From assembly GCA_040768665.1 (NCBI GenBank), contig JAXGMN010000031.1:36369-100368 (forward strand): a DNA stretch of 64,000 nt, given 5' to 3'. Shown here in pieces: positions 6,434-52,188 of the stretch. The position numbers and the translations under genes are program-made. Every line of letters begins with the position of its first letter. Positions within the stretch are counted from its first letter, which is position 1. Below the pieces are notes generated by a model, which did no database searches, was not told the DNA's origin, and was given only the letters and a program-made list of their open reading frames with translations. Origin of the DNA: Thermoguttaceae bacterium. Its GTDB lineage: Bacteria; Planctomycetota; Planctomycetia; Pirellulales; Thermoguttaceae.

Positions 6434-6856
6434 CTATTTGGCAGGCTGTTTCACCGGGGGGGCCGGCGCAGTGGGCCCCTCTTCGACGACCTTTGCCTGA
6501 GGCGACGCCGGATGGCAACAGCCCGCGGAAGTCTGCCGGCAAACCGGTGCACAGGTCCGCACGGGACCGCACGATCCGCAGCCGCACCCGAGGAAGTGCA
6601 TTTTCGGGCCGCAATCGGCGGCTCGAGCCAGCTTTTCTTCGCAGTAGCCGTCCCAGATATTCGTACAGCAGCGGCTCGGGCACGCACAGCACGCCGGTGC
6701 GAGGGCGCCATAAGCGGGCCCGCCGCATGGCTGGGCGGCGTAAGCCGCGAAAGCTGCATAGTTGGGTATCGGAGGCAGAACGGCTCCCGGGACCTCTTGG
6801 CCAACCGCCAAACCGGAAAGGGCCGTTGTTAAAATCAACGATCGAAACCAGTGCAT
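6434..6856 (-). CDS. Small cysteine-rich secreted protein (about 17 Cys), unknown function
   Basis: The ORF runs 6434..6913. The likely start is the Met of MHWFRSLILTTALSGLAVGQ (a signal-peptide-like hydrophobic stretch), which is preceded by a perfect AAGGAG Shine-Dalgarno. The mature part is rich in CC, CxC and GCGCGSCG runs. Confidence 0.55.
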   Translation of the reverse strand: MHWFRSLILTTALSGLAVGQEVPGAVLPPIPNYAAFAAYAAQPCGGPAYGALAPACCACPSRCCTNIWDGYCEEKLARAADCGPKMHFLGCGCGSCGPVRTCAPVCRQTSAGCCHPASPQAKVVEEGPTAPAPPVKQPAK

Positions 6857-11718: not shown

Positions 11719-11864
11719 TGGCGGTTTTGCGAAGCGCCAGCGAGGCCGCACAGCGAGTTCCCCTTGCTTGCGCAGACCCCGTGCGTGCTCCGTCCCCTGC
11801 CGTGCCAGGGAATCATTCCCCCGCCATTGCTGCTGGGTGGCGCGTGAGGTAATTTAGAGGCCCT

Positions 11865-11962
11865 GACAAAACGGGGACAGGCACCTCGCCGGGACGTGTA
11901 TTCTGCGTGCCTTGCCGCTGTTTTGGCTCGGAGCCAGTCCCCGTTTTGTTAGGACCTTTTAT
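11865..11962 (+). promoter_or_regulatory. Long structured inverted repeat followed by a U-tract, lying between the BNR gene and the enolase-family gene. It may be a terminator or an attenuator-like leader.
   Basis: GACAAAACGGGGAC (11865-11878) pairs perfectly with GTCCCCGTTTTGT (11937-11949) across ~58 nt. The spacer contains smaller palindromes (GGCAC..GTGCC, GGCTCGGAGCC). CTTTTATAGAAATTT follows. Confidence 0.4.
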
Positions 11963-12002
11963 AGAAATTTGCCCGACGGGCTGCCTCGGGAGCATTGCTG
12001 CC

Positions 12003-15451: not shown

Positions 15452-15840
15452 GCGAACCGCGCCGACTTCAAGATTTTCCACGCGTGGCTCCTCAATTCCG
15501 ATATGCGTGACGTGTTTCGCTGCGCACGGCGAACCTGGGCATAAGCGCGCCTGGGAAACCGAGGCCGACCGGCGACACCGCGACCGCGCACCACCGTGCG
15601 TGACCACCTTGCGGCAAAGGCCGGCACCGGAAAATTAGATGAGTTGACTCGGACTGCCGTAGCCGGTGCCGCCCAGGACAGTGCCGCAGATGCCTCTCTC
15701 TACTGCAAATACGCAGGGCTTCCGGAAAGGGTTGCACGAAAACGACGTTATTTGCCGCTTTTCTCCGTCGTATTTTCGGGTGGGTATATGCCGGTCAAGG
15801 TGCACATTTGCGCGGAGAAGATTCTGGCTGACCTGTCAAT

Positions 15841-17577
15841 TTGGTGAATATTTTCCGGTTCTGTCAGGTTTTCCGAAAAAATGAGATGCGACAACCAAAA
15901 AAGACTTTAAGGGCGGCTAGCTTGGGGGCCGATAATGAGCCGCAGACCATGATTGGTCGTTTCAGAGCCATGCGGGGGGGCACCCGTTTCCTGGCGAGTC
16001 GAAATTCCATGGCGCTAGCAAAACAGATTTGCAACGCGGGTCGGCAACGGTCGGTCAGATTCCATGTCGCAGTAGGGGTTCTGTTCATTCTGGCCGGCGC
16101 CGGTTTGGGACCTGCGGGAGCCGATGCCCAGCAGGCGGCCTCGCGGACCCCTCCGTGGCAACGTACGCCCACCACCCAATCAGTTCGCATAGTCGGGGCG
16201 GAGACGGCCACGGTGCCCACTGCGGTACCTGCAACCTCCACGCCACGCGCCGCGGCGCCTTCGACGACGAGCAGAAGCTTCACTCGCGCGCGGCAGGCGT
16301 CACAGATCACCTACTCAGACGCAGACGCTGTCGTCGAGGCCGCTCCGGGCGAGGTCTACTACGAAGGCGACCCTTCGATCGCCAACTCCATTACGATGCC
16401 AGGGCCCGTGACGTCCGGCTGCACCGATTGCGGGACTCCCGGAATGGGCGTTCCCGGCATGGGAATCGGCGAAGCGTTCTGGGGCGCCGGCGACGTGTAC
16501 GACAGCGGCGCGGCTTTCGTCCCATGGTGGGGGTTCGCCCCCGGGCGACTCTGGGTGCGTGGCGAGTCGCTGCTTTGGTGGACGGAAGGCACTCGCTTGC
16601 CGCCGCTGGTGACGACCAGCCCTCAAGGAACGGACCAAGAAGATGCGGGAGTCCTGCCGGATGCAACGATCCTTTTCGGCGACCAGGAAGTCAACGACGG
16701 CAGCCGTTCGGGCGGGCGGATCAGTTTCGGGCTGCGGCCGAATGAGTGCAGCCCTTGGGGAATCGAGACGAGCTACATGCGGCTCGGCTCGGAGTCGACG
16801 TCCTTCTTCGCAGAAGGCCAAAACGGCAGACCGATCCTGGCCCGGCCTTATTTCGACATCGAGGCGAATGAAGCCGCCGCGGCTCTCATCTCGTTCCAGG
16901 GCGAAGAAAACAGCTTCCAAGGGGAGGTTTCAGCCCTGGCGGCCGTCACTTTCCAGGGACTCGAACTGCTCATGCGGCGCCGGGTCTCCGACTGGTGCAC
17001 GGGAAGCTTCGACTTCATAGCAGGCTGGCGTTACTGGCGGTTGGACGACGATCTGATCATTGGCCAGGATGTCGACCGTCTGACCACTCCACAGGCAAAC
17101 ATCCAAGTGACCGACCGCTTCCTCACCGAGAACCGATTCAACGGTGGTGAAATCGGCTTCGTCACCGAGACGCAGTGGTGCCGATGGTCGTTCGGCGCAC
17201 TGCTCAAAGTTGGCATCGGCACCACCGATTCCCGTGTGACCATCGCCGGAACCACGGTCGTCGACGACGTTACGGACAACTACGGGTTGCTCGCCTTGCC
17301 GTCGAACATCGGCGTGTACAGTGATGACGAGTTTGCCATGGTTCCGGAGTTCGGCCTCACGGTGGGCTACGATTTGACGTGCAGACTGCGGGCGACGTTC
17401 GGCTATACGCTCATCTACTGGGGCGGGGTTGCCCGCGCGGCGGACCAGGTCAGCCTGGATCTGAACATTCCGAACGACAACGACCGGCAGGTCGGGCTTG
17501 CCCGTCCGGAGTTCCCGTTTGCAAGAACCGACTTCTGGGCCCAGGGTCTCAATTTCGGCCTGGAGTACCGCTTCTAA
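15841..17577 (+). CDS. Outer-membrane beta-barrel protein, candidate member of the planctomycete BBP7-type family (family-level guess from general features)
   Basis: The signal peptide MALAKQICNAGRQRSVRFHVAVGVLFILAGAGLGPAGADA sits internally, so the true start is probably 15886 or 16009. Ser/Thr/Pro-rich linker. The C-terminal half has alternating aromatic/hydrophobic residues and ends in ...GLNFGLEYRF with a terminal Phe, typical of OM barrels. Confidence 0.5.
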   Translation: MVNIFRFCQVFRKNEMRQPKKTLRAASLGADNEPQTMIGRFRAMRGGTRFLASRNSMALAKQICNAGRQRSVRFHVAVGVLFILAGAGLGPAGADAQQAASRTPPWQRTPTTQSVRIVGAETATVPTAVPATSTPRAAAPSTTSRSFTRARQASQITYSDADAVVEAAPGEVYYEGDPSIANSITMPGPVTSGCTDCGTPGMGVPGMGIGEAFWGAGDVYDSGAAFVPWWGFAPGRLWVRGESLLWWTEGTRLPPLVTTSPQGTDQEDAGVLPDATILFGDQEVNDGSRSGGRISFGLRPNECSPWGIETSYMRLGSESTSFFAEGQNGRPILARPYFDIEANEAAAALISFQGEENSFQGEVSALAAVTFQGLELLMRRRVSDWCTGSFDFIAGWRYWRLDDDLIIGQDVDRLTTPQANIQVTDRFLTENRFNGGEIGFVTETQWCRWSFGALLKVGIGTTDSRVTIAGTTVVDDVTDNYGLLALPSNIGVYSDDEFAMVPEFGLTVGYDLTCRLRATFGYTLIYWGGVARAADQVSLDLNIPNDNDRQVGLARPEFPFARTDFWAQGLNFGLEYRF

Positions 17578-17747: not shown

Positions 17748-20700
17748 TTATTGGTTCCAGTCGCCGATTAGTTCGAGGACGTAGTCGATCGTCTGCCGCT
17801 CCACGGTGTCGTCGCCGCCGGCTTCGGAGATCGCCTGCATACGTTCGAAAGCGATCAGCTCGGCAAGGTAGTTGACGCCCGAGACGGTCGCCTTGTTGCC
17901 CGTGGCCGTGAGGTCGTCGTCACCGGTCGAATCGTAGACGATGGCGTTGTCGTCGCCGCCTTTGCCGTCGGCCTTCATCTCCTCGGCCCCGAAGACCTCG
18001 ACCATGTAACCGGCCCCGCGGAGCACGCCGTAACCGGGCCTGATCCGCGCCTCGTCGGCGCCGGCCTTGCCGTTGAGAGTCACCTTGTCGTTGCCGCCGA
18101 GGGCGTCGAGCATGAAGACGTCGACCTCGTCGGCGGAATAGGTCGTTGTCTTGCCGTTGACGACCACCGTGTGTGAATTCGCTCCCGCAGTGAACTGGAT
18201 GTCGTCGTTGCTCGAAGTCCCGGTAATCTTGACCTTCTTGATCCCGGTGAAGCTCGAGAAAACCTCCTCGCAGCCAGGCGTCGAGTTGAGGAAAAGGCGG
18301 ATGCCGACATACTGCGGATTGATGCCGGCCTCTGCGAAATTGTTGTCGGTAATGTGCGAGCCCGATTCCAGGACGATATTGGTAATTGAATTCCCGTTGG
18401 CGGTTCCACCCCCGCTGCCGGCCTCGGCCTTGCCGTCGCGGAACTTTGCGGGCTGGGTCTCGACGACTTCGTACGTGCCGGCCGGGATATCCTTGAACAG
18501 GTAGAAACCATCGGGGCCGGTCTTGACCGTTGCCACGTCGGACCATGTGGCGGTGTCGCCGGTGCCGGTCTTCTGCCGGAGTTTCACCGTCACGCCCGCC
18601 AGGCCCATATCGCCCTGGGTGCCGTTGCCGGGTCCGGCGTAGCCGTCCTGGCCGTCGCCCTCCATGTAAACGATTCCGGAGAGGCTGCCGCTGCCGACAA
18701 GAACCGAGATCGTCTCCTGATCGGTCTTTGCGCCGCCCGAGCCGGTGTTGCCCTTATCATTGGCCGTCACCTTGAGACTGTCGCTGCCGGCGTAGTTGGC
18801 GTTGGGCTTATATTTCAGGCCATTGGTGGCGGCCAGAGTGGCGTTGATCTTGGCCACCGTTCCCTTGAGGACCACTTTGGCGGTGCCGTTGCCGCTGACA
18901 CCGCCGGCTGCCACGCCCCCGCTCACGTTCGTCAGCACGGTCAATGTGCCGTGGCTCACCTCGAGCGTGACCTCGATTTCGCCGGTTCCCGCATCGGCAT
19001 CCGAAACGGAGATCCCGGTGATCTCTCGCTCCCCGTTCTTCGGTGCGACGACCGAGGCCGGCACGGTGAGCACGGGCGCGGCATTCACACCGGTGACGGT
19101 GATGGCAACCGTCTCCTGATCGGTCTTCGCGCCGCCGGTGCCGGTATTGCCCTTGTCGTCGGCCTTCACTTTGAGGCTATCGGCTCCGGTGTACGTGGCG
19201 GCCGACTTGTACTTCAGGCCATTGGTCGCGGCCAGCGTGGCATTAACCTGGGAAAGCGTTCCTGTGAGAACGATCTTGGCGGTGCCGTTGCCGCTGACAC
19301 CGCCGGCCGCCACGCCGCCGCTGACGTTGGTCAGCACGGTCAGCGTGCCGTGGCTCACCTCGAGCGTGACCTCGATCGCACCCGTCGCGGCATCCGGATC
19401 GGCGATGCTGATGCCGGAAATCGCCAGATCGGTGTTCTGGGCGATCGTTTTCGCGCCGGGCACGGTCACGACAGGCGCCTGGTTGGCCGTGGTTACCGTG
19501 ATCGAGAGATTTTTCGTCGCCGTCTTGGCGCCGCCCGACCCGGTATTGCCCTGATCGTTCACCGTAACTGCAAGCGTGTTGGGCGTGGTCGACTCGGTCG
19601 TGCCGCGATACTTCAGCCCGCCCGAGGCGGCCAGGGTGGCGTTGATCTTGGCCACTGTGCCGGTCAACGTTACGGTCCCGGTTCCATTGCCCTGGATATC
19701 CGCCGTGGCAAGACCGCCCGAAACGTCGGTCCGGAGCGTGAGACTGCCATGGCCAATGGCAAGCGTGACGACGACGTTGGCGGTGCCGGCATCGACGTCG
19801 GCGATGCTCACGCCGGAGACTGCCAGGTCGGTGTTGGGCGCGACGGCGAGTGCCGAGGGAACCGTGACCTGCGGAGCGTCGTTGACCGCGCTGAGCGTAA
19901 TGGAGACGGTCCCGCTGCCGCTCTGCGCCCCGCCGGTACCGGTATTGCCCAGATCGTTGGCCATCACGCTTAGCGTGGCGGTCGTGGTGTTGTTGGTCAG
20001 CCCCTTGTACTTTACTCCCTGGGCGTTGGCCAGTGTGGCGTTGATCTTCGCCCGGCTGCCGGTCAGCGTTACCGATGAGGTGCCATTGCCGGAGATATTC
20101 GAACCGGTAAGACCGCCAGAAACGTCGTTCTTGACGGTCAGGGTGCCGTGTGTCACGGTCAGCGTGACACGGATATCCGAAGAACCGGCATCGGCGTCGG
20201 CGATGCTGATGCCGGTGATGTACTTGTCGGTGTCTTCCGTGGCGCTCTGGGTTCCGGGAACGGTCACCACCGGGGCCTGGTTGGCGCCGGCCACGGTAAT
20301 TGGCAGATCCTTGATGGTCGTTTTCGCGACGCCGGAGCCGGAGTTGCCTTGGTCGTTGGCCGTGATGGTGAGCGTTTCGGGGCCGGTATAGCCGGTCGTG
20401 CCGCGGTACTTGAGCCCGGCCGAGGCATCCAGCGTGTTCTTGATCTTGGCCAACGAGCTCGTCACGGTCACCGTGCCCGTGCCGTTGCCGACCACGTCAG
20501 CCGCCACCAGGCCACCCGTCACGTCGGTCTTGAAGGTCAGCGTGCCGTGGTCGACCTCGAACTTGACCTCGACCGTCGCGCTGCCGGCGTCGGCGTCGGT
20601 GATGCTGATCCCGGAGAGCACAAGTTCCGCCCCCGACGGCACCGCCTGTTCGCCGGGGATCGTGATCACCGGGGCGTCGTTGACCGCCGTGACGGTAATC

Positions 20701-22625
20701 GCGATCTGCTCGGCATCGCTCTTGGCGCCGCCGGGACCGGTGTTGCCCTGGTCGTTTGCCGTGACAGCCAGGGAGTCGGCGCCGACATAATCGGCCTGTC
20801 CCCGGTAGACCAGCCCCTGGGACGCAGCCAGCGTGTTATTGATCTGGGCCAGCGAACCGGTGAGAACGACCGACCCGGTGCCGTTGCCCTGGATCTTTGC
20901 GGCGGTCAGTCCGCCGGAGACGTTGTCCTTCACCGTCAGCGTACCGTGGGCGACCGCCAGCGTGACGCGGATTTCGGCCGAAGCGGCGTCGGGATCGTGG
21001 ATGCTGATCCCGGCGATCGCCAGGTCGGTGTCCTCCGCCACGGTTTGTGCGGTCGGAACGGTGACGACCGGAGGCTGGTTCGCGGCGACAACAGTGATCG
21101 TTACGGGTTTCTGGACGCTCTTGGCTCCGCCGGAACCGGTGTTCCCCTTGTCGTCTACAGCGATAGTGAGCGTTTCCGATCCGGTATAGTTCGTGTCGCT
21201 GACGTATTTCAGCCCTTGCGAGTCCGCCAGAGTGGCGTTGATTTGGGCGATCGTACCGGTCAGGGTGACCGTCTTCGTATGATTGCCCTGGATGTCGTCA
21301 GCGGTCAGCCCACCGGTGACGCCGGTTTTTACCGTGAGCGTCCCCTGAGCGACCTCGAGGGTTACCTCGACGTCGGCGGTGTTCGCGTCCACGTCGGCGA
21401 CGCTGATTGGGGTCACAAACAGATCCGCGCCGGTGCCGACGGAGAGGCTGGTGGGAGCCGCGATGCTCGGAGAATCGTTCACGGCCGCCACGGTGATGGC
21501 AACCTGCTTGGTTTGGCTTTTCGCGCCGCCCGCGCCGGTGTTCCCTTGGTCATTGGCCGTGACCGTCAGGCTGACATTGCCGTTGAAATCGGCGTTGGGT
21601 ACCGTGTAGGCGACGTTGGCGTCCAGGGTCGCGTTGATTTGCGACACGGTTCCGGTAAGCGTTACGATGCGCGACCCGTTGCCGCTGACCGCAGCACCGC
21701 CGCTGACCGTTTGCACGGCAAGCGTGCCGGAATTGGTGGGAATCGCCAGCGTGACCACGATCTGGCTCGTCCCCGCGTCCGGGTCCTCCACGCTGATGCC
21801 GCTGACCGTCGCCGTGGCATTGGCCGCCTCGTTCACGTTCGGACCCGTGACCGGCACGGTGACCTGCGGCGCGTCGTTGGCGTCAGTCAGCGTGATCGTC
21901 AGCGACGCGCTGTCGTCGGGCGTCTGGCCGATGGCCGGATCGTCGATGGAGACGGTCACGTCGAGTTGCGGATTCGTCTCGAAGTCGAGCGGGGCGCCCG
22001 CTTTCAGGTACAGGGCAACAGAACCATCGAGTTCGAACAGGTCGGCGTCGGCGCCGCTGAGCGACAGCGAATTGTTTCCCTCGCCGTCGTCGACGATCGC
22101 GAGGTCGGCCACTTTGCGCCGGACCGACATATCGGTATCTTCCGATAGCGTGGTTGTGGTGTTCACCAGGTCGATGGTCGGCGGAGCATTCGTCGCGGAG
22201 TCGTTGTCGGTGATCGCCACCGTGACGTCGTCGATCTCGATGCCGTCGTAGCTGGCGTCCTCGCTGGTCGCGGTGTGCGCGATGATGCCGTTGTGGTCGC
22301 CTTCCACGTCGGTGTCATCGATTGCCGAAACCGTCACCTCCTGCACCTGGTCCCAATTGTCCGGAGTGAACGTCAGCGATTCCGGAGAAACGTCCAACTG
22401 GCCATCCGGTGTGAGCGTGATCACCACGTTGGCGGCCGGCTCGGCGTCGAGCACAACCTCATACGCGGCAGTGACGCCGCTCTCGCTGACTTCGACACCC
22501 CCTGTCGGCTCAGTGATTACCACAGCCAGCAGGGTCCGCTGTTCGAGCGGTTCACATCGCAGGTGGCGGTTCAGAGAACGGCTGACGTTGCAGTTGCGGC
22601 GGAGAAGGCGGGACAACGACTTCAT
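17748..22625 (-). CDS. Giant secreted/surface repeat protein: basic N-terminal leader, about 10-11 tandem ~98-aa cadherin-like/Ig-like repeats (each ending VNDAP or ANQAP), SdrD-B-like domain and a conserved Gly/Asp-rich C-terminal module
   Basis: 1625 aa. Leader MKSLSRLLRRNCNVSRSLNRHLRCEPLEQRTLLAVV. Tandem repeats of the pattern NDAP-VT-P...GISI.D.DAG....V.V.LAV.HGTLT...GNGT..V.LTG.....INATLA...GL.Y.....G.D.L.V.ANDQGNTG.GGAK. C-terminal SGIVYMEGDGQDGY...AGTYEVVETQP (SdrD-B-like). Then GGNDKVTLNG, GKGGDDNAIVYDSTGDDDLT and AGGDDTVE, which are beta-roll-like. Ends WNQ. Confidence 0.8.
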   Translation of the reverse strand: MKSLSRLLRRNCNVSRSLNRHLRCEPLEQRTLLAVVITEPTGGVEVSESGVTAAYEVVLDAEPAANVVITLTPDGQLDVSPESLTFTPDNWDQVQEVTVSAIDDTDVEGDHNGIIAHTATSEDASYDGIEIDDVTVAITDNDSATNAPPTIDLVNTTTTLSEDTDMSVRRKVADLAIVDDGEGNNSLSLSGADADLFELDGSVALYLKAGAPLDFETNPQLDVTVSIDDPAIGQTPDDSASLTITLTDANDAPQVTVPVTGPNVNEAANATATVSGISVEDPDAGTSQIVVTLAIPTNSGTLAVQTVSGGAAVSGNGSRIVTLTGTVSQINATLDANVAYTVPNADFNGNVSLTVTANDQGNTGAGGAKSQTKQVAITVAAVNDSPSIAAPTSLSVGTGADLFVTPISVADVDANTADVEVTLEVAQGTLTVKTGVTGGLTADDIQGNHTKTVTLTGTIAQINATLADSQGLKYVSDTNYTGSETLTIAVDDKGNTGSGGAKSVQKPVTITVVAANQPPVVTVPTAQTVAEDTDLAIAGISIHDPDAASAEIRVTLAVAHGTLTVKDNVSGGLTAAKIQGNGTGSVVLTGSLAQINNTLAASQGLVYRGQADYVGADSLAVTANDQGNTGPGGAKSDAEQIAITVTAVNDAPVITIPGEQAVPSGAELVLSGISITDADAGSATVEVKFEVDHGTLTFKTDVTGGLVAADVVGNGTGTVTVTSSLAKIKNTLDASAGLKYRGTTGYTGPETLTITANDQGNSGSGVAKTTIKDLPITVAGANQAPVVTVPGTQSATEDTDKYITGISIADADAGSSDIRVTLTVTHGTLTVKNDVSGGLTGSNISGNGTSSVTLTGSRAKINATLANAQGVKYKGLTNNTTTATLSVMANDLGNTGTGGAQSGSGTVSITLSAVNDAPQVTVPSALAVAPNTDLAVSGVSIADVDAGTANVVVTLAIGHGSLTLRTDVSGGLATADIQGNGTGTVTLTGTVAKINATLAASGGLKYRGTTESTTPNTLAVTVNDQGNTGSGGAKTATKNLSITVTTANQAPVVTVPGAKTIAQNTDLAISGISIADPDAATGAIEVTLEVSHGTLTVLTNVSGGVAAGGVSGNGTAKIVLTGTLSQVNATLAATNGLKYKSAATYTGADSLKVKADDKGNTGTGGAKTDQETVAITVTGVNAAPVLTVPASVVAPKNGEREITGISVSDADAGTGEIEVTLEVSHGTLTVLTNVSGGVAAGGVSGNGTAKVVLKGTVAKINATLAATNGLKYKPNANYAGSDSLKVTANDKGNTGSGGAKTDQETISVLVGSGSLSGIVYMEGDGQDGYAGPGNGTQGDMGLAGVTVKLRQKTGTGDTATWSDVATVKTGPDGFYLFKDIPAGTYEVVETQPAKFRDGKAEAGSGGGTANGNSITNIVLESGSHITDNNFAEAGINPQYVGIRLFLNSTPGCEEVFSSFTGIKKVKITGTSSNDDIQFTAGANSHTVVVNGKTTTYSADEVDVFMLDALGGNDKVTLNGKAGADEARIRPGYGVLRGAGYMVEVFGAEEMKADGKGGDDNAIVYDSTGDDDLTATGNKATVSGVNYLAELIAFERMQAISEAGGDDTVERQTIDYVLELIGDWNQ

Positions 22626-22878
22626 GGGAGCTTATCCTCGGGTGACACTTGATGGAGCAGGCTGCACCACTTGTGAGACCACCCCTAATGGGGCAGTCTG
22701 AACGAGCGATCCAGCAGCTCGGTACTCTGTTCCAGGGAGTGGTGAGCCTGAGCGGGTCGAACGGACAATGGGAGAAGTTAGCTCGGCGGTGGTGGTGCGA
22801 GGACAACGACCTGTGTGAAGTGCCTCTTCAGTGGTCTGATCGCCTACTCGCCCGCCCGTGAGCGTGTGCTAAGACTTC

Positions 22879-23004: not shown

Positions 23005-23023
23005 CCCGGCAAGCGGGACCTGC
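23005..23023. repeat. Half copy of the intergenic palindromic repeat family (GGCAAGCGGGACCT arm)
   Basis: CCCGGCAAGCGGGACCTGC matches an arm of the repeat at 41587-41609. Confidence 0.35.
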
Positions 23024-23068: not shown

Positions 23069-26000
23069 CTACGGTTGATCCCAGCCGCCTTCGAGCATCA
23101 GCACGAAGTCGATCGCGTCTTGCTCTGCGGTGTCGTTCCCTCCCAACTCGGATACGGCCCGGACCCGCTCGAAGGCAATCAATTCGGCAAGGTAATCGCC
23201 ATAGTCGATCGTCGCCTTGTTATCGCCGGCGGCCAGATCGTCGCTGCCCGCGGAGTCGAAAATGACGGCAGTGTCGTTGGTGCCCCCTTTGCCGTCGATC
23301 TTGAGGGTCTCCGCATTGAGAGCCTCCACCATGTAGTTCGAGCCCTTGAGGCTGCCCCATGCTCGCATGGACTCCGCCTGGTCAACTCCCGCGGCACCGT
23401 TCAGTGTAACGCTGTCCTCACCGCCTCCGGCATCGATCGTGAAGACGTCTACCTCGCTGGCGGTATAGGTCGTCGCCTTGCCGTTGACGGTGACCGTGTG
23501 GGAATTCGTCCCGGCAGTGAAAACGATCGTGTCGGCCCCCGAGGTTCCCTCGATGAACACCTCCTTGACGCCGAGATGATCGCGGATGATGGTCCGCGAG
23601 GAGGGTGTGGAGTTGAGGAACAGGCGGATCGAGATCGACTCAGGCTCGATGTTGGTTTCCGCGAAGAGGTAGTCTTCGCCGTGTTCGCCGGCAGCCAATT
23701 CGATGTCGGTGATCTTGTTGTTCTCGGCCGTCCCGCCCGCTGTGCCGACAGTCTCCTTGCCGTCGGCGAAGTCGTTCGGCTGCGTTTCGAGAACCTGATA
23801 GGTTCCGGCCGGCAGGTTATCGAATAGGAAAACCCCGTCCGGCCCCGTGGTAACGGGTGCAACGCCAGCGACGTCTTCGTAAGTTCCGTCCTGCGAGTTT
23901 TTCTTCTGGAGCTTGACTGTGACGCCCGGCAATCCCATCTCGGTCGGCAAACCGTCGGCATCGAGATCGCGGACGCCATCGTTGTCGGTGTCGAGCCAGA
24001 CATAACCGGAAAGACTGCCGTTGCCATCGTCGTCGGCGATATTCACCGTGGCGCTCTGCTGAGTGCCTACGGTGTAACCCGTGCCGGATTGCAGCGTGAG
24101 CACCGCCGTCTCGGACGCCTCGATTGCAGAGTCGTTGAGCACGTCGAGCGTCACATCAACCGAGGATTGGCCGGCGGGGATGGTTACGGTGGTTCCCGTC
24201 ACGTCCGTCGTTCCGACCTTGAGCACGTAGTCACTTCCCGTGCCGCGCGTGGCGGTTCCGCTGACGGCAAACGTGACGTTTAACGCACTGGTCGTTGAAC
24301 CGGTTCGCGTAATACGGAAGGTCCCATCGTTCGACGGTTCCGCCGCGGCGGCATCGGTCGCGGTGACGGTCACGACCGCGGCTTCGTCGTCGGCGATGTT
24401 CACCGTGGCGCTCTGCTGGGTGCCTACGGTGTAGCCGGTGCCCGACTGAAGGGTCAACACGGCCGTTTCCGATGTTTCGGCCGCCGTATCATCGAGCACG
24501 TCGAGCGTCACGTCGACGAAGGATTGGCCGGCGGGGATCGTCACGGTGGTTCCGTCACGTCCGCCGTTCCGACCTTGAGCACGTAGTCGTTTCCGTGCCA
24601 GCGTGGCAGTTCCGCTGGCGGCGAACGTGACGTTTAACGCACTGGTCGTTGAACCGGTTCGCATAATACGGAAGGTCATCGTTCGACGGTTCCGCCGCGG
24701 CGGCATCGGTCGCGGCCAATCGTGACGACCGGTGTATCGTCGTCGACGATATTCACCGTGGCGGCTCTGCTGAGTGCCTACGGTGTAACCCATCGCCAGT
24801 TGCAGGGCGAGCACCGCCGTCTCGGACGCCTCGATTGCAAAGTCGTCGAGCACTTCCAGGGTCACATCGACGAAGGATTGGCCGGCGGGGATTGTCACGG
24901 TCGTTCCCGTCACGTCGGTGGTACCAACCTTGAGCACGTAGTCGTCGCCCGTGCCGAGCGTGGCGGTTCCGCCGGCGGTGAACGTGACGGTCAGCGCCGC
25001 TTCCGTCGAGCCCGTCCGCGAAATCCGGTAAGTGCCGTTGTTCGACGGCTCTGCCGCGGTTGCGTCGGTGGCCGTGATCGTGACGACCGCCGCATCATTG
25101 TCATTGTCGTCCTCGATCTGGACGGTCGCACTGTCTTCGTCGCCTACCGTGTAACCGGTGCCCGATTGCAGGGTGAGCACGGCCGTTTCGGAATCCTCGA
25201 CCGCCACGTCGTCGATCACCTCCAGGACGACGTCGACCGACGCCTGCCCCGCCGGGATCGCGACGGAGGTCCCGGTCAACACCGTGCCGCCGACGCGGAG
25301 GAAATAGTCGTCTCCCGTGCCGCGAGTGGCGGTGCCGCCGACGCCGAAATTGACCGTGAGCGATCCCTGGGTGGAACCGACGCGGGTGATGCGGTAGGTG
25401 CCGTCGTCTGCCGGTTCCGCTGCGTTGGGATCGACTGCCGCAATGGTCACCACCGGCGGGTCGTCGTCGGCGATGGTCACCGTGGCACTGCCCGCGGTGC
25501 CGACGGTGTACTGCCCCGCCTGAAGCGACAGGATAGCCGTCTCCTGGCTCTCCGCCACGTCGTCGTCAGCCACTTCGAGCGTCACGTCGATGAATGTCTC
25601 GCCGGCGGGAATTATTACAGTCGTATCGGTCAACTCCGTGTCGCCCACTTTGAGAACGTAATCGTTTTCCGTTCCCTGCTCGGCGGTTCCGCCGACGGCG
25701 AAGGTTACTGTCAGCGGCGACTCCGTGGAACCGGTTCGCGCGATGCGATATACGCCGCCGTTGGACGGTTCCGCCGCGTCCGGATCGGTCGCCGAGATGG
25801 TCACAAGGTCGTTATCGGCGATGTTCACGGTGGCTGTGTCCAGCGAGCCCACCGTGTAGCCGGTCGCCGCCTGCAGGGTCAGCACGGCGGTCTCAGGAGG
25901 TTCCTGCAACGAGTCGTCGACCACCTCCAGCGTGACATTCAGGGAGTCCTCCCCGGCGGCCAGGTTGAGCGTTGTACCGGTAACCTCCGTGCCATCGACT

Positions 26001-26614
26001 TTGAGTACGTAGTCATCTTCCTCGCCTCGCTCGGCGGTTCCGCCGATGACAAATTCCACGCTCAGCGCCGCTTCCGTGGAACCGGCCCGCCGAATCTGGT
26101 ATGTCCCATGATTGGATGGTTCCCCGGCACTGGAATCCGCTGCAATGACGGTCAGCACAGGCGGATCATTGTCGGCAATGTTGATGGTGGCGCTGTCGGA
26201 TGTGCCGATCGTATAGCCGGTGCCCTCTTCGAGCGTCATCACGGCGGTCTCGGTAAACTCTGCCGTGGCGTTATCAACGGCCTCGAGGGCAACGTCCACG
26301 GAAGCCTGGCCCGCCGGGATGGTAATGGTCGATCCACTTACCTCCGTGCCCCCCACCTTGAGCAGGTAGTCGGTGCCGCGACTGGCCGATCCGCCGATGC
26401 TGAATTCGACGTCCAACGCGGCCTCCAAGTCGTCGGTTCGCGTAATCTGGAACGTCCCGTTGTCGCTCGGTTCGGCAGCTTCGCCGTCGGTCGCTGTGAT
26501 CGAAACGACTACGGCCAAGAGCGAGCGTTCTTCCAAAGGTTCGCATAGAAGACGTCGGCAGCGAAGGGGATGGCTGACGCGGTTGCGGCGGTGCAGACGA
26601 GAACCTGTTTTCAT
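23069..26614 (-). CDS. Giant secreted/surface protein: same N-terminal leader, ~9 Calx-beta repeats, SdrD-B-like domain and the same conserved C-terminal module. One internal repeat is frame-garbled.
   Basis: The start is placed at the Met of MKTGSRLHRRNRVSHPLRCRRLLCEPLEERSLLAVV (GGAAGG Shine-Dalgarno 7 nt upstream). The ORF track extends to 26689. Calx-beta units have the pattern ATD..AAEPSN.GT.RI.RTGST..L.V.F.VGGTA..G..DY.L..G.T..T...V.IPAG...VDV.L.V.DD...E..ETAVL.LQ.G.GYTVG...ATV.I.DD. The C-terminal ~330 aa align along their length with the C-terminus of the 17748..22625 protein. Region ~24540-24790 reads as a repeat with several indels. Confidence 0.75.
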   Translation of the reverse strand: MKTGSRLHRRNRVSHPLRCRRLLCEPLEERSLLAVVVSITATDGEAAEPSDNGTFQITRTDDLEAALDVEFSIGGSASRGTDYLLKVGGTEVSGSTITIPAGQASVDVALEAVDNATAEFTETAVMTLEEGTGYTIGTSDSATINIADNDPPVLTVIAADSSAGEPSNHGTYQIRRAGSTEAALSVEFVIGGTAERGEEDDYVLKVDGTEVTGTTLNLAAGEDSLNVTLEVVDDSLQEPPETAVLTLQAATGYTVGSLDTATVNIADNDLVTISATDPDAAEPSNGGVYRIARTGSTESPLTVTFAVGGTAEQGTENDYVLKVGDTELTDTTVIIPAGETFIDVTLEVADDDVAESQETAILSLQAGQYTVGTAGSATVTIADDDPPVVTIAAVDPNAAEPADDGTYRITRVGSTQGSLTVNFGVGGTATRGTGDDYFLRVGGTVLTGTSVAIPAGQASVDVVLEVIDDVAVEDSETAVLTLQSGTGYTVGDEDSATVQIEDDNDNDAAVVTITATDATAAEPSNNGTYRISRTGSTEAALTVTFTAGGTATLGTGDDYVLKVGTTDVTGTTVTIPAGQSFVDVTLEVLDDFAIEASETAVLALQLAMGYTVGTQQSRHGEYRRRRYTGRHDWPRPMPPRRNRRTMTFRIMRTGSTTSALNVTFAASGTATLARKRLRAQGRNGGRDGTTVTIPAGQSFVDVTLDVLDDTAAETSETAVLTLQSGTGYTVGTQQSATVNIADDEAAVVTVTATDAAAAEPSNDGTFRITRTGSTTSALNVTFAVSGTATRGTGSDYVLKVGTTDVTGTTVTIPAGQSSVDVTLDVLNDSAIEASETAVLTLQSGTGYTVGTQQSATVNIADDDGNGSLSGYVWLDTDNDGVRDLDADGLPTEMGLPGVTVKLQKKNSQDGTYEDVAGVAPVTTGPDGVFLFDNLPAGTYQVLETQPNDFADGKETVGTAGGTAENNKITDIELAAGEHGEDYLFAETNIEPESISIRLFLNSTPSSRTIIRDHLGVKEVFIEGTSGADTIVFTAGTNSHTVTVNGKATTYTASEVDVFTIDAGGGEDSVTLNGAAGVDQAESMRAWGSLKGSNYMVEALNAETLKIDGKGGTNDTAVIFDSAGSDDLAAGDNKATIDYGDYLAELIAFERVRAVSELGGNDTAEQDAIDFVLMLEGGWDQP

Positions 26615-26706
26615 GGCAGTTTGCCTTCCTGCGCGCGATTTCCGAGGAACTGGTTCAGAAGTGGGCACAAATGACCAATCGCCGGCCAACGCCGGGTCAA
26701 GATTTC

Positions 26707-26807: not shown

Positions 26808-26830
26808 GAGTAGGTCCCGCTTGCCCGCAG
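26808..26830. repeat. Partial copy of the intergenic repeat family (GTAGGTCCCGCTTGCC core)
   Basis: GAGTAGGTCCCGCTTGCCCGCAG. Confidence 0.4.
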
Positions 26831-31184: not shown

Positions 31185-31290
31185 GTGAGTGGGTTCCGCT
31201 TGCCCGAGCATGACCCGGGAGCAAGGTCCCGGTCGCCAAGTCTGGTAGGTCCCGCTTGCCGGAGACCTACCGGTGGCGGAACCTATTGGT
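31185..31290. repeat. Composite copy of the intergenic palindromic repeat family
   Basis: GTGGGTTCCGCTTGCCCGAGC (31189-31209), then GGTAGGTCCCGCTTGCCGGAGACCTACCGGTGG (31244-31276), in which GGTAGGTC and GACCTACC form a hairpin. Shares the core and the ACCTACCGGTGG tail with 41528-41615. Confidence 0.5.
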
Positions 31291-32691: not shown

Positions 32692-34170
32692 ATGCGATTC
32701 ACCTTGGCAACCCGGATCTCGACAGCCGTGGTCGGCGTGGTCGCACTCGCCTTGATGACGAGCGGAGTCGCGCTCTATTCGTCTCGGAATATCAACGATC
32801 TTCTGACGACAACAATCCATAAGAACCTTCCCAGTGTGAGAGCCGCGGAAGAGCTCGAAATTGCACTTTTGGAGCAGCGGGGCATGGTCGGCTCCTACAT
32901 CCTGGACGGTGGGAATCGCGAGTGGCTCGAGGGGCTTCCCGAACGGGAACTCAGCTTCCGCCACTGGCTGGATCAGGCGCGTGCTACGGCCCATACGCCG
33001 AGCGAGCACGCGATCCTCGACGATCTGATGGAGGTCTATCTCCGGTACGACGCCAAGCGCGACCGGGTGATTGAATTGTATGAAGCCGGAGAGACTTCGC
33101 AGGCGAGGGAGATCCTCCTGGGCGACGTCTATGCATTGTACCACCGTGCATATGAGCTCTGCGAGGCGTTCATCAGGGCGAACATTGACTCCGTCGACCA
33201 GTCGGTCGCCTCGGCCACCCGTCAAACGCGCGACGCCGCGCTGCTCACCGTGTTGGCGGTGGTCGTTACGACGGCATTGGGGCTGTTTCTCCTGTGGCTT
33301 TTTTTCGTCGGTGTGCTGCTTCCCCTGCGGCGGATGATCGCCGAGGCAAAGGAGTATGCCGGTGACCGCGCCGGATCCAACGGCGACGAGTTGCGTGCGA
33401 TGGGCGATTATCTGAAGCTGCTCATGTCGGACATGGCCGTGACCAGGAGCAGCCTGGAAGCGAGCGAGGCCAGGCTCTCCAGCGCGGAGAAGTTGGCTTC
33501 GGTCGGCAAGCTCGCCGCCGGCGTCGCCCACGAGATTCGGAATCCGCTCACCGCGATCAAGATGTGGCTCTATTCGATCCGCGGAAGCGTGGCGTCCGAC
33601 GCGGAACTGGACCGAAAGCTTGCCATCGTGTCCGAAGAAATCACCCGACTGGAAAACATCGTCCACGATTTCCTCGAGTTCTCGCGCCCGGCCCCGCTGA
33701 AGCTGGTCCGACACGATCTCCGCTCGATCGTCGGCACCACGTTGGATCTGCTCCGCTGCCGGTTTGAAGAGGCCGGCATTCAGCTCATCTGGGCGTTACC
33801 TCCCGAACCGGTCTGGGTATCGGCCGACTCGGAACAGCTTCGCCAGGTGCTGATCAACCTGGCAAACAACGCGATCGACGCCACGCCGGCGGGCGGCGAA
33901 GTCCGCGTGGAAGTCGGAATGGAATCGGCCGGCCAGATAGGTCCCATGGGGATAGTTCGCATGCGGGACACGGGCGGCGGAATGCCCGACGACGTCCGGG
34001 AGCAGATCTTCGACCCATTTTTCACCACTAAGGAAGGCGGGACCGGTCTCGGGCTCAGCATTGCTGCGCAGATCGTCGCTCGCCACCAGGGACGGCTCCT
34101 CTTAGAGTCCACATCGGACCGCGGCACGACGCTGTCGATCTCAATCCCTCTGGCGGAGCAAGACGGATGA
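32692..34170 (+). CDS. Sensor histidine kinase (two TM helices flanking a ~170-aa periplasmic helical sensor; HisKA + HATPase_c)
   Basis: The start is at the Met of MRFTLATRISTAVVGVVALALM, 11 nt after the SPFH stop. The ORF track begins at 32524. H-box HEIRNPLTAI. N-box NLANNAIDA. G-boxes DTGGGMP and GGTGLGLSIA. Confidence 0.85.
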   Translation: MRFTLATRISTAVVGVVALALMTSGVALYSSRNINDLLTTTIHKNLPSVRAAEELEIALLEQRGMVGSYILDGGNREWLEGLPERELSFRHWLDQARATAHTPSEHAILDDLMEVYLRYDAKRDRVIELYEAGETSQAREILLGDVYALYHRAYELCEAFIRANIDSVDQSVASATRQTRDAALLTVLAVVVTTALGLFLLWLFFVGVLLPLRRMIAEAKEYAGDRAGSNGDELRAMGDYLKLLMSDMAVTRSSLEASEARLSSAEKLASVGKLAAGVAHEIRNPLTAIKMWLYSIRGSVASDAELDRKLAIVSEEITRLENIVHDFLEFSRPAPLKLVRHDLRSIVGTTLDLLRCRFEEAGIQLIWALPPEPVWVSADSEQLRQVLINLANNAIDATPAGGEVRVEVGMESAGQIGPMGIVRMRDTGGGMPDDVREQIFDPFFTTKEGGTGLGLSIAAQIVARHQGRLLLESTSDRGTTLSISIPLAEQDG

Positions 34171-41192: not shown

Positions 41193-41522
41193 TCAGGAAA
41201 AGTGGTCTCTCCCGTCACCGCGTGCAGGCGGCAGATCAGGGCCAGGGCCAAGGCGGTTGCGGCGGACGGCCACCACAATCCCGGTTAACACCAGCGCGTG
41301 CGGCACCGGATCCGGCAGAATTTTCTCCGCGGCAAGTTGCAGCCGGCTGGGATAGGCCAGCGCCACCAGCAGCATGAACACGCCGGTGCCCATCACGTTC
41401 AACGCGAGCACTTTGCGGACCAACTGCGAGAGCACCAAGGCCCCGAACAGCCCGATCCCAAAAAGCGCCACCGCCACCAGGCTGTAGAGCACGGCCGGAT
41501 TCATGTTCGGTTCTCCTGTCAA
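41193..41522 (-). CDS. Mrp/Mnh antiporter subunit C (NuoK-like)
   Basis: MNPAVLYSLVAVALFGIGLFGALVLSQLVRKVLALNVMGTGVFMLLV. Small 3-TM NuoK/MnhC pattern. The start may be the internal Met at 41504. Confidence 0.7.
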   Translation of the reverse strand: MTGEPNMNPAVLYSLVAVALFGIGLFGALVLSQLVRKVLALNVMGTGVFMLLVALAYPSRLQLAAEKILPDPVPHALVLTGIVVAVRRNRLGPGPDLPPARGDGRDHFS

Positions 41523-41527
41523 GAAAT

Positions 41528-41615
41528 GGTACCAATGGGCGACAGAAGTAGGTTCCGCTTGCCGAGCGGGCCCATTGGGGCGAGGTCCCGCTCGGCAAGC
41601 GGGACCTACCGGTGG
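41528..41615. repeat. Full copy of the intergenic palindromic repeat family, lodged between mnhB-like and mnhC. It supplies the mnhB-like stop codon.
   Basis: Nested inverted repeats. ACCAATGGGC pairs with GCCCATTGG. GTAGGTTCCGCTTGCCGAGCGGG (41548-41570) pairs with CCCGCTCGGCAAGCGGGACCTAC (41587-41609; 22 of 23). Tail CGGTGG as in the 31185 copy. Confidence 0.55.
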
Positions 41616-42364
41616 TCATCCTTCTCCTCATTCTCTCGGAAATCTTGGTGCCGCTGGCGGCCCGATTGGCCCGATAGCACGCCGGCTAGCAGGACGATGA
41701 AAATGGCGCCCACCGAGAGCATCGCCGCGGCCTCGATCACGAGGATCCACGCCTTGGCTGATTCCGCAGGGTATTCCAGAAAACGCCTGCCCGCGGCGAG
41801 CATTCCCAGACCGATGCCCCCGAACGTCGCCAGGCCCAGAATCACGGCGACGTGCAGTTTGCGGCCGCGGAACCAGCGGGCGACCGGGGCTCCGGCCAGC
41901 AACAGCAGCACGCCGCCGCCGCCCAGCGCCGCACCCGCCTGAAAAGCCCCGCCGGGCCGGTCGGCACCGATCCACAGCAGGTATCCGGCCACCAGCACGA
42001 CGATCGGCACCACGGCCGCCGCCAGGGCCGCCAGCAACGGTGGCGGGGCGGCCGGCGCGGCGGCGAACCAGTCCTGCCGCCACACCGCCTGAACGCCCAT
42101 CGCCGCCAGCACGAGGACCGCGACTTCCAGCAGCGTGTCGTAGGCGCGGAAGTTAAGCAGCACCCCCGTCACCGGATTCGAAACGCCGCCGGCGGCCACG
42201 AGTCCTTGTCTCGCGTCGCTATCCTGAAAGCGGGCCGTCAGACCGGCCGGTTGCTCCGGCAGCGTCAGCACGCTCCAGGCCACCATTCCGCTGAGCGTCG
42301 CCGTCAAGGCGGCCGCAGCCAACGTGCCCGGCGTTGCCCGCAGCGGCAGATCGTTTGTCCTCAT
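41606..42364 (-). CDS. MnhB-domain protein (MbhE-like) fused to an MrpB-like region
   Basis: NPVTGVLLNFRAYDTLLEVAVLVL (MnhB domain signature). Downstream GADRPGGAFQAG (compare MrpB AGHxxPGGGFxGG) plus TM helices. The true start is probably internal (Met of MVAWS, ~42286). The last ~25 codons and the stop lie in the repeat element. Confidence 0.6.
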   Translation of the reverse strand: MRTNDLPLRATPGTLAAAALTATLSGMVAWSVLTLPEQPAGLTARFQDSDARQGLVAAGGVSNPVTGVLLNFRAYDTLLEVAVLVLAAMGVQAVWRQDWFAAAPAAPPPLLAALAAAVVPIVVLVAGYLLWIGADRPGGAFQAGAALGGGGVLLLLAGAPVARWFRGRKLHVAVILGLATFGGIGLGMLAAGRRFLEYPAESAKAWILVIEAAAMLSVGAIFIVLLAGVLSGQSGRQRHQDFRENEEKDDHR

Positions 42365-50738: not shown

Positions 50739-51290
50739 CTAACCCTGCGCGCTCCCGCCCTCGCCGTGAAGGCGGTGCTTCTGCATCTTCGCGTGAAGCG
50801 TCGGACGAGGTATGCCCAGCAGTCGGGCGGCGTGGGTTTGGTTCCCCTTGGCCCGGCGTAGGGCCTCGGTCAGAAGCAGCTTTTCGACCTTTCCAAGGAA
50901 TTGGTCGTAAGCTCGCGGACCGTCGTGCGAGCTGAGATAGCGCCATACCACCTCGGCCAGCGTCTCGTCGTCTTTGGCAAACGGCTCGCTCGCCCTCCCC
51001 TCATCCACAGGCTCAAAGAGCGAACGCAAATCCGCCGCTTGGATGGCATGACCGCGCGTAAAAATCATCGTGCGGTGGATGCAGTGCTGAAGTTCCCTCA
51101 CGTTCCCGGGCCAGGGATGACTCTTAAGTAATTCCAAGGCGTCCTCGGAGAGCACAGGTCTGTCGGCGCCCAGTTCTTCCGCAAAGCGATTCAAGAAGAG
51201 ATCGACCAACTTCGGAATGTCTTCCTTGCGCTCCCGAATCGGAGGAATGTGGATGGTCGCCACGTTCAGCCGGTCCGATCGTCTTCTGGA
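50739..51290 (-). pseudogene. Remnant C-terminal third of an NtrC-family sigma54 regulator (paralog of 34167..35588), lacking REC and Walker motifs
   Basis: ...RLNVATIHIPPIRERKEDIPKLVDLFLNRFAEEL...WPGNVRELQHCIHRTMIF...GNQTHAARLLGIPRPTLHAKMQKH aligns with residues ~300-473 of the intact regulator at ~60% identity. No upstream REC or AAA+ sequence is present. Confidence 0.65.
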
Positions 51291-52188
51291 TCGAGAACAA
51301 CCACATCTTGATCGCCGTGAGCGGATTGCGCAGCTCGTGGGCCACGCTGGCCGCCAGCTTTCCTACCGAGGCCAGTTTCTCCGCACTCATCAAGCGTCTC
51401 CTGGTCTGTTCCAGCACGGCACGCCCGCTGCTCACCTCCGACATCAGGGTTCGCAGGTATTCACCCACAGCCTGCAACTCATCCTCTTGCGTTCCAACGC
51501 CCTTCGAAGTCGTACAACCTGCCGCCGCGCGCGCCTCGGCGGCAATGCTCCGCAGGGGAAGGACCACACCGCGGAGAAACAGCCAAAGCAGCCCCATTCC
51601 GATCGCGATGGTCGCGCTGACGAAGGCTGCCGCCAGCCACGTCGCCGACCTGATTCGGCGAGCCCCAGTTTCAATTGCCGCATCGACAAAACGCTCGTTG
51701 GCGGCAATGACATCTCTGCAGAGGGAGAACGCTCGCTCGTAGAGGTCCGCCAGGTCATGCACCAAAATCATTGTGGCTTCCGTTGCCTCACCCCTATCAT
51801 AGAGCGACAACATTTCATCCCGCTTGGCATCGTAGTCGTGATAGACGTGATCCAAATCCCGCATTAAGGCCGCTTCTTCCGGCGTGTGTGCGGTCGATTG
51901 CGCCAGACCCAGCCACTTGTCGAACTCGGCTTTCCAGCGATGCAATTCCCGCAAATGATCGGGCCTACCGCGATCCAGGATATACGCGGACACGATCGCC
52001 CCCTGTCGCAGGAACGCGATTTCCAGTTCGTTGGCGGCGCGCACGCTGGACGCGTTGTTGGTGAGCACCTCTTGCATCAGGTTTCCGACCGCCCACATCG
52101 ACAGTAGCGTCAGAAGGCTGCTGGCTGCCGCCAGGGCAACGACCCCTATGATGGCTATTGAAAACCTGGTCCCCAGTGTAAGTCGCAT
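51124..52188 (-). pseudogene. Remnant N-terminal part of a sensor histidine kinase (paralog of 32692..34170): TM-sensor-TM-HAMP-like-H-box, no ATPase domain
   Basis: MRLTLGTRFSIAIIGVVALAA...SVRAANELEIAFLRQGAIVSAYILD...HELRNPLTAIKMWLFSIQKT, then non-kinase sequence. About 55% identical to the intact kinase through the H-box. A +1 frame change at ~51280-51290 joins it to the regulator remnant. Confidence 0.65.

Follow-up and report, generated by a model that had tools for sequence, protein, structure and literature searches.

A GTAG-tagged REP doublet in an antiporter operon of a Thermoguttaceae bacterium, a probable member of a RAYT-associated family of Planctomycetia

Described REP systems and the element analysed here

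Repetitive extragenic palindromes (REPs), their inverted doublets (REPINs, pairs of REPs that form hairpins) and the REP-associated tyrosine transposases (RAYTs) are well described. In the closest known systems, the REPINs of P. fluorescens SBW25 and the REPs and bacterial interspersed mosaic elements (BIMEs) of E. coli with the transposase TnpA_REP (structure 4ER8), inverted palindromic REPs form a long hairpin with GTAG at its 5' foot. These elements are extragenic and multi-copy, occur as tandem REPIN clusters and leave no target-site duplication, and the gene of the Y1/HUH transposase is flanked by its own units (PMC3116915, PMC3337134, PMC3479197). The REPIN concept was set out in PMC3116915 and PMC3337134; the requirements of TnpA_REP for GTAG and CT are given in PMC3479197, where A3 and G4 of GTAG specify cleavage at CT. 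Here we describe an element of this kind in a stretch of 64,000 nucleotides (the window; G+C content 63%) of contig JAXGMN010000031.1 from a Thermoguttaceae bacterium. The element lies at 41548..41609, between an mnhB-like and an mnhC-like gene of an Mrp-type antiporter operon.

With a probability of roughly 0.88 we regard this element as a GTAG-REP doublet, i.e. a REPIN, that belongs to a Planctomycetia-wide RAYT-associated family, has its place between mnhB and mnhC and provides mnhB with its stop codon. A preliminary description of the window, based on its letters and open reading frames (ORFs), had left the choice between a REP-like family, miniature inverted-repeat transposable elements (MITEs) and a small RNA or attenuator family. 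The REP-like option was borne out, as the repeat is a GTAG-tagged REP arranged as a REPIN, and related genomes encode a cognate RAYT flanked by such hairpins. The traits listed above for the described REPIN-RAYT systems recur in the planctomycete family. Differences concern the unit sequence, which is distinct, and the stem, which is perfect over 9-10 bp, in contrast to the imperfect, bulged hairpin of E. coli. Moreover, some planctomycete copies have full symmetry, GTAG being present on each strand, the RAYT flanks are often heterodimers of a variant and a canonical unit, and the 26-mer is common to three orders instead of being confined to one species or genus.

GTAG-tagged REPs were grouped by Di Nocera et al. 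2013 into a super-family of 24 families, including GTAG-20 and GTAG-21 of Rhodopirellula baltica (PMC3733652). The present unit resembles these in its GTAG tag, its stem-loop (6-13 bp in the super-family), the opposite orientation of its dimers, the frequent donation of a TAG stop and its presence in Planctomycetes; donation of the stop codon to a flanking ORF is given there as a known property of GTAG REPs. Judged by eye and not by computation, the peptides given for intragenic copies of GTAG-20 and GTAG-21 do not look like translations of the planctomycete unit. The strings GTAGGTC and GGTCCCGC are absent from the supplementary text of PMC3733652, a comparison which leaves aside the consensus figure, so that identity with one of its families is possible; GGTCCCGCTTGCC occurred in no searchable paper. 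Set against the text and supplements of PMC3733652, from which planctomycete GTAG REPs are already known in R. baltica, the present unit is an undescribed family of a well-known kind. The sole feature beyond the ordinary is that one 26-mer is common to three orders of Planctomycetia.

The family can also be compared with IS200/IS605 elements (IS608, ISDra2), in which a hairpin and an adjacent 5' tetranucleotide are recognised on single-stranded DNA (ssDNA) by a Y1/HUH enzyme, likewise without target duplication (PMC3479197, PMC6006769). Unlike these, the planctomycete hairpins are dispersed alone and are not the ends of a multi-copy element with its own transposase, and nearly all RAYT protein clusters were seen on one contig each.

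The doublet in the mnhB-mnhC junction

Inverted-repeat detection and folding resolved the element into two inverted REP units with a 10-nt spacer, together a 26-bp hairpin that can form in either strand of ssDNA or in mRNA. Unit 1 (41584..41609, minus strand) matches the consensus GTAGGTCCCGCTTGCCGAGCGGGACC at 26 of 26 positions and is followed by a T, which gives the conserved 3' CT. Unit 2 (41548..41573, plus strand; GTAGGTTCCGCTTGCCGAGCGGGCCC) is slightly decayed and matches at 24 of 26. The spacer (41574..41583, ATTGGGGCGA on the plus strand) is short against the range of 5-119 nt in other genomes. The 26-nt arms are complementary at 24 positions (92%), and the inner pair of 23 nt with 22 matches that had been recorded before corresponds to their first 23 nt. 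The long hairpin expected for this copy was recovered by folding: the 78-nt region reached -53.7 kcal/mol as RNA (z = -8.9), far beyond shuffled sequences, and -31 to -32 kcal/mol as ssDNA (z about -8; range -7.7 to -8.9 across the folds including RNA). The hairpin of unit 1 alone amounts to -18 kcal/mol as RNA.

According to the preliminary description two inverted repeats are nested here. Both pairs exist, but they are not nested. The 9-nt outer pair, CCAATGGGC at 41532..41540 with its complement GCCCATTGG at 41570..41578, brackets unit 2 alone. Since its second arm extends from the last bases of the left inner arm into the spacer, outer and inner pairings compete and are mutually exclusive; the minimum-energy folds contain no outer pair. 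Possibly this pair records how the second unit came about, as a related contig with a single unit (L109, see below) lacks such a spacer; no mechanism fits cleanly.

The element is embedded in a minus-strand operon for an Mrp/Mbh-type antiporter with the order Usp-TPR gene; MnhE, MrpF-like ORF, MnhG; MbhD-like ORF; MbhE/MnhB; repeat; MnhC; three PF00361 subunits. The gene for the MbhE/MnhB-like subunit (41606..42364, minus strand; PF04039, PF20501 and homologues) terminates inside the repeat, and its TAG stop (41608-41606, minus strand) is the TAG in the GTAG of the minus-strand unit 1. The suggestion that the repeat lies within the Mrp operon and supplies a stop codon was thus correct. For the mnhC-like gene (41193..41504, minus strand; PF00420) we took the ATG at 41504 as start, which is homologous to the annotated start of a related contig (L108) and is preceded by the Shine-Dalgarno sequence AGGAGA at 41512-41517, 7 nt upstream of this ATG and 30 nt downstream of the hairpin. 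With this start the mnhB-mnhC gap is 101 nt. The earlier placement of the repeat in this gap holds, whereas the length of 80 nt does not; about 83 nt would be obtained only with a TTG at 41522.

A scan for terminators and promoters found no terminator-like site at the element. The stem is followed by the tail CUUCUGUCGCC without a T-run, which makes simple intrinsic termination unlikely. A pyrimidine stretch 3-4 nt upstream of the mnhC AGGAGA (UUUCUU in the window, 41518-41526; CUCUUC in L109, about 985-1000) could pair with it; this pairing is present in the minimum-energy fold, is weak and may be coincidence.

The history of the site was followed in three related contigs that were found through MnhB homologues. 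L107, with an MnhB 95% identical to that of the window, has the same tail and unit and ends 9 nt into the spacer, an assembly break at the repeat. L108 (MnhB 87% identical) has no repeat; its mnhB ends at a TGA, and mnhC starts 20 nt later. In L109 (MnhB 79% identical) a similar tail ends at the TAG of one degenerate unit. The state of the orthologous site thus varies from empty (L108) through one unit (L109) to a doublet (L107 and the window). At the position of the L108 TGA the window has a CAA codon, and the frame continues for 13 codons to the TAG of the repeat. This C-terminal extension of MnhB (QDFRENEEKDDHR; 41609..41647, minus strand) is poorly conserved in L109, and since the tail is far less conserved between window and L109 than the remaining protein, it fits a fortuitous extension. 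A MAFFT alignment also hinted that the 35-nt flanks on either side of the window element might be diverged duplicates of the L108 junction; with an identity of about 60%, counted by hand, they scored no higher than unrelated flanks, and the idea was dropped.

The family in Planctomycetia and its transposase

The unit has the layout GTAG-GTCCCGCT-TGCCG-AGCGGGACC (26 nt), and each unit is a small hairpin by itself. The arm is the palindrome GT-AGGTCCCGCT-TGCCG-AGCGGGACCT with a stem of 9-10 bp, a loop of 5 nt and GTAG at the 5' end; the consensus reads 5'-GT-AGGTCCCGCY-TGCCG-RGCGGGACCT-3' and as ssDNA folds with -12.5 kcal/mol (z = -5.8). At the hairpin foot the AG of GTAG is paired with a conserved 3' CT. 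Among 176 non-redundant units from other genomes GTAG was conserved to about 99%, the 3' C to 75% and the 3' T to 82%, and the base preceding GTAG was A in 60%; the sole conserved flanking bases (A...T) extend the palindrome. Both units of the window doublet start with GTAG, and the copy at 31189 has GTGG.

For an unbiased test of the hairpin, all GTAG+N8+TGCCG sequences in the fetched DNA were collected without using pairing for selection, giving 93 distinct units. Pairing was retained in 87.5% of cells, with double changes at eight of the nine pairs and 98 compensatory cells, a level reached by 0 of 500 shuffles (slid controls, 36 at most). Recurrent variants retain GTAGGTCC, the loop and GGACC, with compensatory swaps in the inner stem (e.g. 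...CCCGCC-TGCCG-GGCGGG..., ...CCAGCC-TGCCG-GGCTGG..., ...CCCTTC-TGCCG-GAAGGG...). G-U-type pairs at the stem foot were restricted to the GTAG strand (24 of 93 units at pair 4-26).

An exact scan for the 23-mer GTAGGTYCCGCTTGCCGAGCGGG over one genome per species (185,579 species) placed the motif well beyond the window, in at least 106 loci of at least 39 species-level genomes. The matches listed were all labelled Planctomycetota and included at least 17 loci in a single genome. The families represented among them were Pirellulaceae, Thermoguttaceae and Lacipirellulaceae (Pirellulales), Gemmataceae (Gemmatales) and Planctomycetaceae (Planctomycetales), i.e. three orders of the class Planctomycetia. 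The only hit outside Planctomycetia among the matches listed was locus L079, an 8-kb stretch of JAYTAK010000724.1 assigned to a 'Candidatus Kuenenia' sp. Its G+C content is 54.7%, while Kuenenia genomes have about 41%, and for this reason it was treated as a probable binning error and not as evidence for the class Brocadiia. No match was found in viral contigs, and on this ground a viral vector was rejected as explanation for the wide distribution.

Neighbouring units mostly formed inverted (+-) doublets with GTAG pointing outward and the two units 5-119 nt apart. A solitary 29-mer, fully symmetric and bearing GTAG on each strand, was the second common form; units occurred in both orientations, and degenerate forms included the single unit in L109 and half-units in the window. 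Spacers were alike within a genome (27-29 nt in metagenome-assembled genome (MAG) JADHUC01, 28-29 nt in MAG CAZURK01) and unrelated between genomes, as would be the case were doublets copied as a whole. Several contigs end in or beside a unit (L107 at 6756-6789, L060, L056 and L097), and the family thus breaks short-read assemblies.

When 112 clusters were placed relative to ORFs, 77 were intergenic, 25 lay in the 5' slack of stop-to-stop ORFs, one across a 3' end and nine inside ORFs. Hence 102 of the 112 were outside coding sequence, although ORF calls cover 76% of the DNA. The flanking genes converged in 21 cases, pointed the same way (tandem) in 28 and diverged in five, which indicates a preference of the elements for gene 3' ends and an avoidance of promoter regions between divergent genes. 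The nine clusters deep in coding-like ORFs include L005 1221-1297, L050 4677-4819, L095 1096-1180, L040 2521-2546, L089 3638-3663 and L106 4228-4253; they may be in-frame REP insertions, as in Opitutus terrae (PMC3733652), or artefacts of gene calling.

Donation of the stop codon is not peculiar to the window. For 94 units a co-oriented coding-like ORF ended nearby, and in 19 of them the TAG of GTAG was its stop codon; no other offset exceeded four, and five ORFs read into the unit out of frame. Fourteen of 18 ORFs ending at a REP TAG carry Pfam domains in frame, often up to within about 10 residues of the C-terminus, which marks them as complete genes and not truncated ones. A role of GTAG as insertion target was also considered for these stops, and it was kept only as part of the unlikely reading of class-wide co-option given below: according to the work on E. 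coli, GTAG belongs to the element that is recognised, and the cut is made at CT (PMC3479197), and at the single empty site available, L108, the stop is a TGA located 39 nt upstream.

A motif screen over all ORFs of the fetched loci yielded two candidate RAYT genes. The protein encoded in L093 (1594-2217, 208 aa) scored 26.0 bits with Pfam Y1_Tnp and 81.3 with NF047646, and that in L102 (3608-2976, 211 aa) 25.0 and 73.9 bits. The cut-offs are 23 bits for Y1_Tnp and 80 for the NCBIfam equivalog NF047646 (REP_Tyr_transpos, 'REP-associated tyrosine transposase'), so that L102 falls below the latter. In the PDB they have a single relative, the REP complex of E. coli TnpA_REP (4ER8), to whose HUH and Y motifs the PTHLH or PTHVH and YI..NP sequences of the two proteins align. 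Both genes are bracketed on both sides (L093, 1464-1569 and 2226-2415; L102, 2872-3000 and 3620-3760) by heterodimers, each made of one to five variant GTAG hairpins (GTAGGTCCAGCCTGCCGGGCTGGAC or GTAGGTCCCTTCTGCCGGAAGGGACC), then a spacer, then a single canonical unit in inverted orientation; the two flanks are oriented alike. The two RAYTs are 60% identical, yet they are flanked by the identical unit.

The alignment of both proteins was then used in a metagenome scan, which gave 50 loci. All 22 relatives with at least 54% identity and readable flanks had GTAGGT-type hairpins on the readable sides, and the RAYT gene of L115 is flanked on either side by exact copies of the canonical 26-mer. At 31-47% identity the relatives have other GTAG hairpins, e.g. 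GTAGGGCGGACTTCAGTCCGCC, indicating that enzyme and hairpin change together. A protein search returned 614 RAYT homologues at an E-value of 1e-10 or below, many of which bear the JGI name 'REP element-mobilizing transposase RayT'; with few exceptions a protein cluster was seen on a single contig.

Besides the doublet, the window contains decayed copies of the unit. The 16-mer GTAGGTCCCGCTTGCC, searched with up to three mismatches, had seven matches in the 64 kb. Six of them, at 41548(+), 41594-41609(-), 31189(+), 31245(+), 26810(+) and 23008(-), fall on the four sites that had been pointed out at the outset, all of which are intergenic. The seventh (17487..17502, plus strand, three mismatches) lies inside the coding ORF 15832-17577, is probably due to chance and was not counted as a member. 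Between an esterase-like and an SPFH/Band-7 gene, a decayed, nested cluster at 31189..31288 (plus strand; fold z = -3.9) is composed of a GTGG-variant unit, the collapsed palindrome GTAGGTCCCGCTTGCCGGAGACCTAC (31245-31270) and the terminal remnant GCGGAACCTAT. The two remaining sites are half-units that no longer fold, namely an exact 16-mer at 26810..26825 (plus strand) in a divergent intergenic region and a copy with GCAG in place of GTAG at 23008..23023 (minus strand), 46 nt downstream of the stop of the repeat-protein gene 23069-26704. Of the copies and half-copies counted in the preliminary description, those at 23008 and 26810 are thus half-units, and what it gave as the third site is a decayed or nested cluster.

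These half-units occupy the gaps after and before the second of two large repetitive minus-strand ORFs. The first, 17748-22631 (about 1628 codons), has at least seven tandem repeats of 399 nt and a weak Cadherin-domain match; the second, 23069-26704 (about 1212 codons), has repeats of about 354 nt and SdrD_B / SpaA-like matches. An unrelated long palindrome at 11858-11957 (33-nt arms, 82% complementary, 34 nt apart; core ACAAAACGGGGAC / GTCCCCGTTTTGT) lies in the gap before an ORF starting near 11853-12000, and its arm cores occurred in none of the 159 fetched loci. In addition, inverted repeats about 18 kb apart (33481-33580 vs 51288-51387, 100 nt, 82%; 33289-33347 vs 51533-51591, 59 nt, 78%) resemble two diverged paralogous genes on opposite strands.

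Proposed mobility, rival explanations and possible effects on the operon

By analogy with E. coli TnpA_REP, a RAYT of the HUH/Y1 type encoded once elsewhere in the genome would bind the single-stranded hairpin together with GTAG, the latter being recognised base-specifically on ssDNA. The enzyme would then cut at a CT and move or copy the doublet in trans, the doublet being the mobilised unit (PMC3116915, PMC3337134). The conserved CT directly at the 3' hairpin foot, opposite the AG of GTAG, is the obvious candidate for the cleavage site. The element itself is non-coding and would be primarily a selfish or commensal passenger.

Several points weigh against this reading. No RAYT gene was detected by tblastn in the 64-kb window, which is only the examined part of the host genome. 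The window holds one intact doublet and three decayed sites, and the family may be inactive here. Transposition itself was not seen directly. Of the two relatives, L108 without the repeat is nearer to the window than L109 with it, so that L108 may have lost the element instead of preserving an empty site; gain and loss are both compatible with the pattern. Furthermore, near-identity of the 26-mer over three orders is broader than the usual specificity of REPs for a species or genus and leaves room for an added host function. Finally, effects on the operon mRNA are plausible, and all of them are taken over from E. coli work.

The breadth of the 26-mer gives a modest chance to a role at the level of the host, although a conserved RAYT-DNA interface could equally account for it. 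In its most explicit form, which we consider unlikely, element and RAYT would have been co-opted class-wide, the hairpin with its embedded stop codon tuning both termination and mRNA 3'-end stability, or the RAYT would target (G)TAG stops; the system would be unusually ancient and vertically kept.

Slightly less probable still is that a cis-regulatory RNA under host selection, i.e. an attenuator, an mRNA 3'-end stabiliser or a termination brake, fixes the sequence and that the link to RAYTs is secondary. The near-invariance of the 26-mer in three orders and the strong preference for gene 3' ends and stop codons would be expected on such grounds, and the tolerance of G-U-type foot pairs on the GTAG strand only, described above, points the same way. 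Intrinsic terminators and stabilising hairpins such as the malE-malF REP of E. coli share with the present element a strong G+C-rich hairpin just past a stop in a polycistronic transcript, and E. coli REPs are known to have a stabilising effect on the mRNA that precedes them and to halt ribosomes close to stop codons (PMC12306157). However, the planctomycete element is symmetric and probably mobile and lacks a T-run, its units are found in either orientation and for the most part paired in symmetric doublets, the window copies decay freely, and the site is empty in the close relative L108, whose operon is intact. Base-specific recognition by the RAYT explains the constancy equally well, and the hairpins co-vary with RAYT divergence. 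Rfam 15 gave no match in the window at gathering thresholds, only weak generic miRNA-hairpin hits of 14-25 bits against gathering values of 70-93. Without an Rfam family or a terminator-like T-run, the small RNA or attenuator option had no support.

A classical MITE, a deletion derivative of a DDE-type insertion sequence moved by cut-and-paste between terminal inverted repeats, is very improbable. The doublet does resemble two terminal inverted repeats about a short core, and the copies are dispersed. Yet target-site duplications, for which the preliminary description had advised to look, gave no general signal: the flanks of 116 clusters had a mean score of 7.06 as compared with 6.50 for unrelated flanks, and the window element shows no direct repeat at its borders (AGAA|...|CGGT). 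The conserved flanking bases only extend the palindrome, each supposed terminal repeat is itself a hairpin with 5' GTAG, and the gene found between units encodes a Y1/HUH RAYT and not a DDE transposase. In the strict sense the MITE option therefore had no support.

A chance palindrome or local duplication of one intergenic segment, for which only the partial nature of three of the four window sites might speak, has a negligible probability in view of the seven 16-mer matches (0.76 expected; 0 of 100 dinucleotide-preserving shuffles reached seven) and of exact copies with unrelated flanks in at least 39 other genomes. Equally negligible is the reading as a degenerate CRISPR repeat or as a different array of protein-binding operators, suggested by the palindromic repeat of about 29 nt and by the array L026 750-1380, where at least 13 units in a row, symmetric single hairpins alternating with doublets and their flanks repeated along, immediately precede an ORF that starts at 1426; in this array the sequences between the units do not differ from one another, which implies tandem duplication of whole units with flanks, and elsewhere the copies are solitary or inverted doublets, a judgement made from the repeats themselves, as no search for cas genes was made.

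With the element read as a RAYT-mobilised REPIN, its insertion would have turned a 20-nt junction into one of 101 nt with a hairpin of -54 kcal/mol, thereby uncoupling translation of mnhC from that of mnhB; across such a gap mnhC would have to initiate on its own Shine-Dalgarno sequence. As known from E. coli, the hairpin may also act as a barrier to 3'-exonucleases or as a target of a double-strand RNase. A stop codon placed in the stem foot may also slow down the termination of MnhB, as E. coli ribosomes stall when a REP is located within 15 nt of a stop (Liang et al. 2015, summarised in PMC12306157).

The established picture of REPs is unchanged by the present family. As to the antiporter operon, a relative shows a tight mnhB-mnhC junction that is broken up here by the insertion, which may alter the stoichiometry of the Mrp subunits. 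In planctomycete genomes and MAGs more generally, REP units of this kind explain contig breaks (as in L107), odd C-terminal extensions, TAG stops and long 'intergenic' gaps within operons. A unit that is constant over three orders is, moreover, a useful test case for the persistence of REPIN-RAYT systems and the constraints acting on them.

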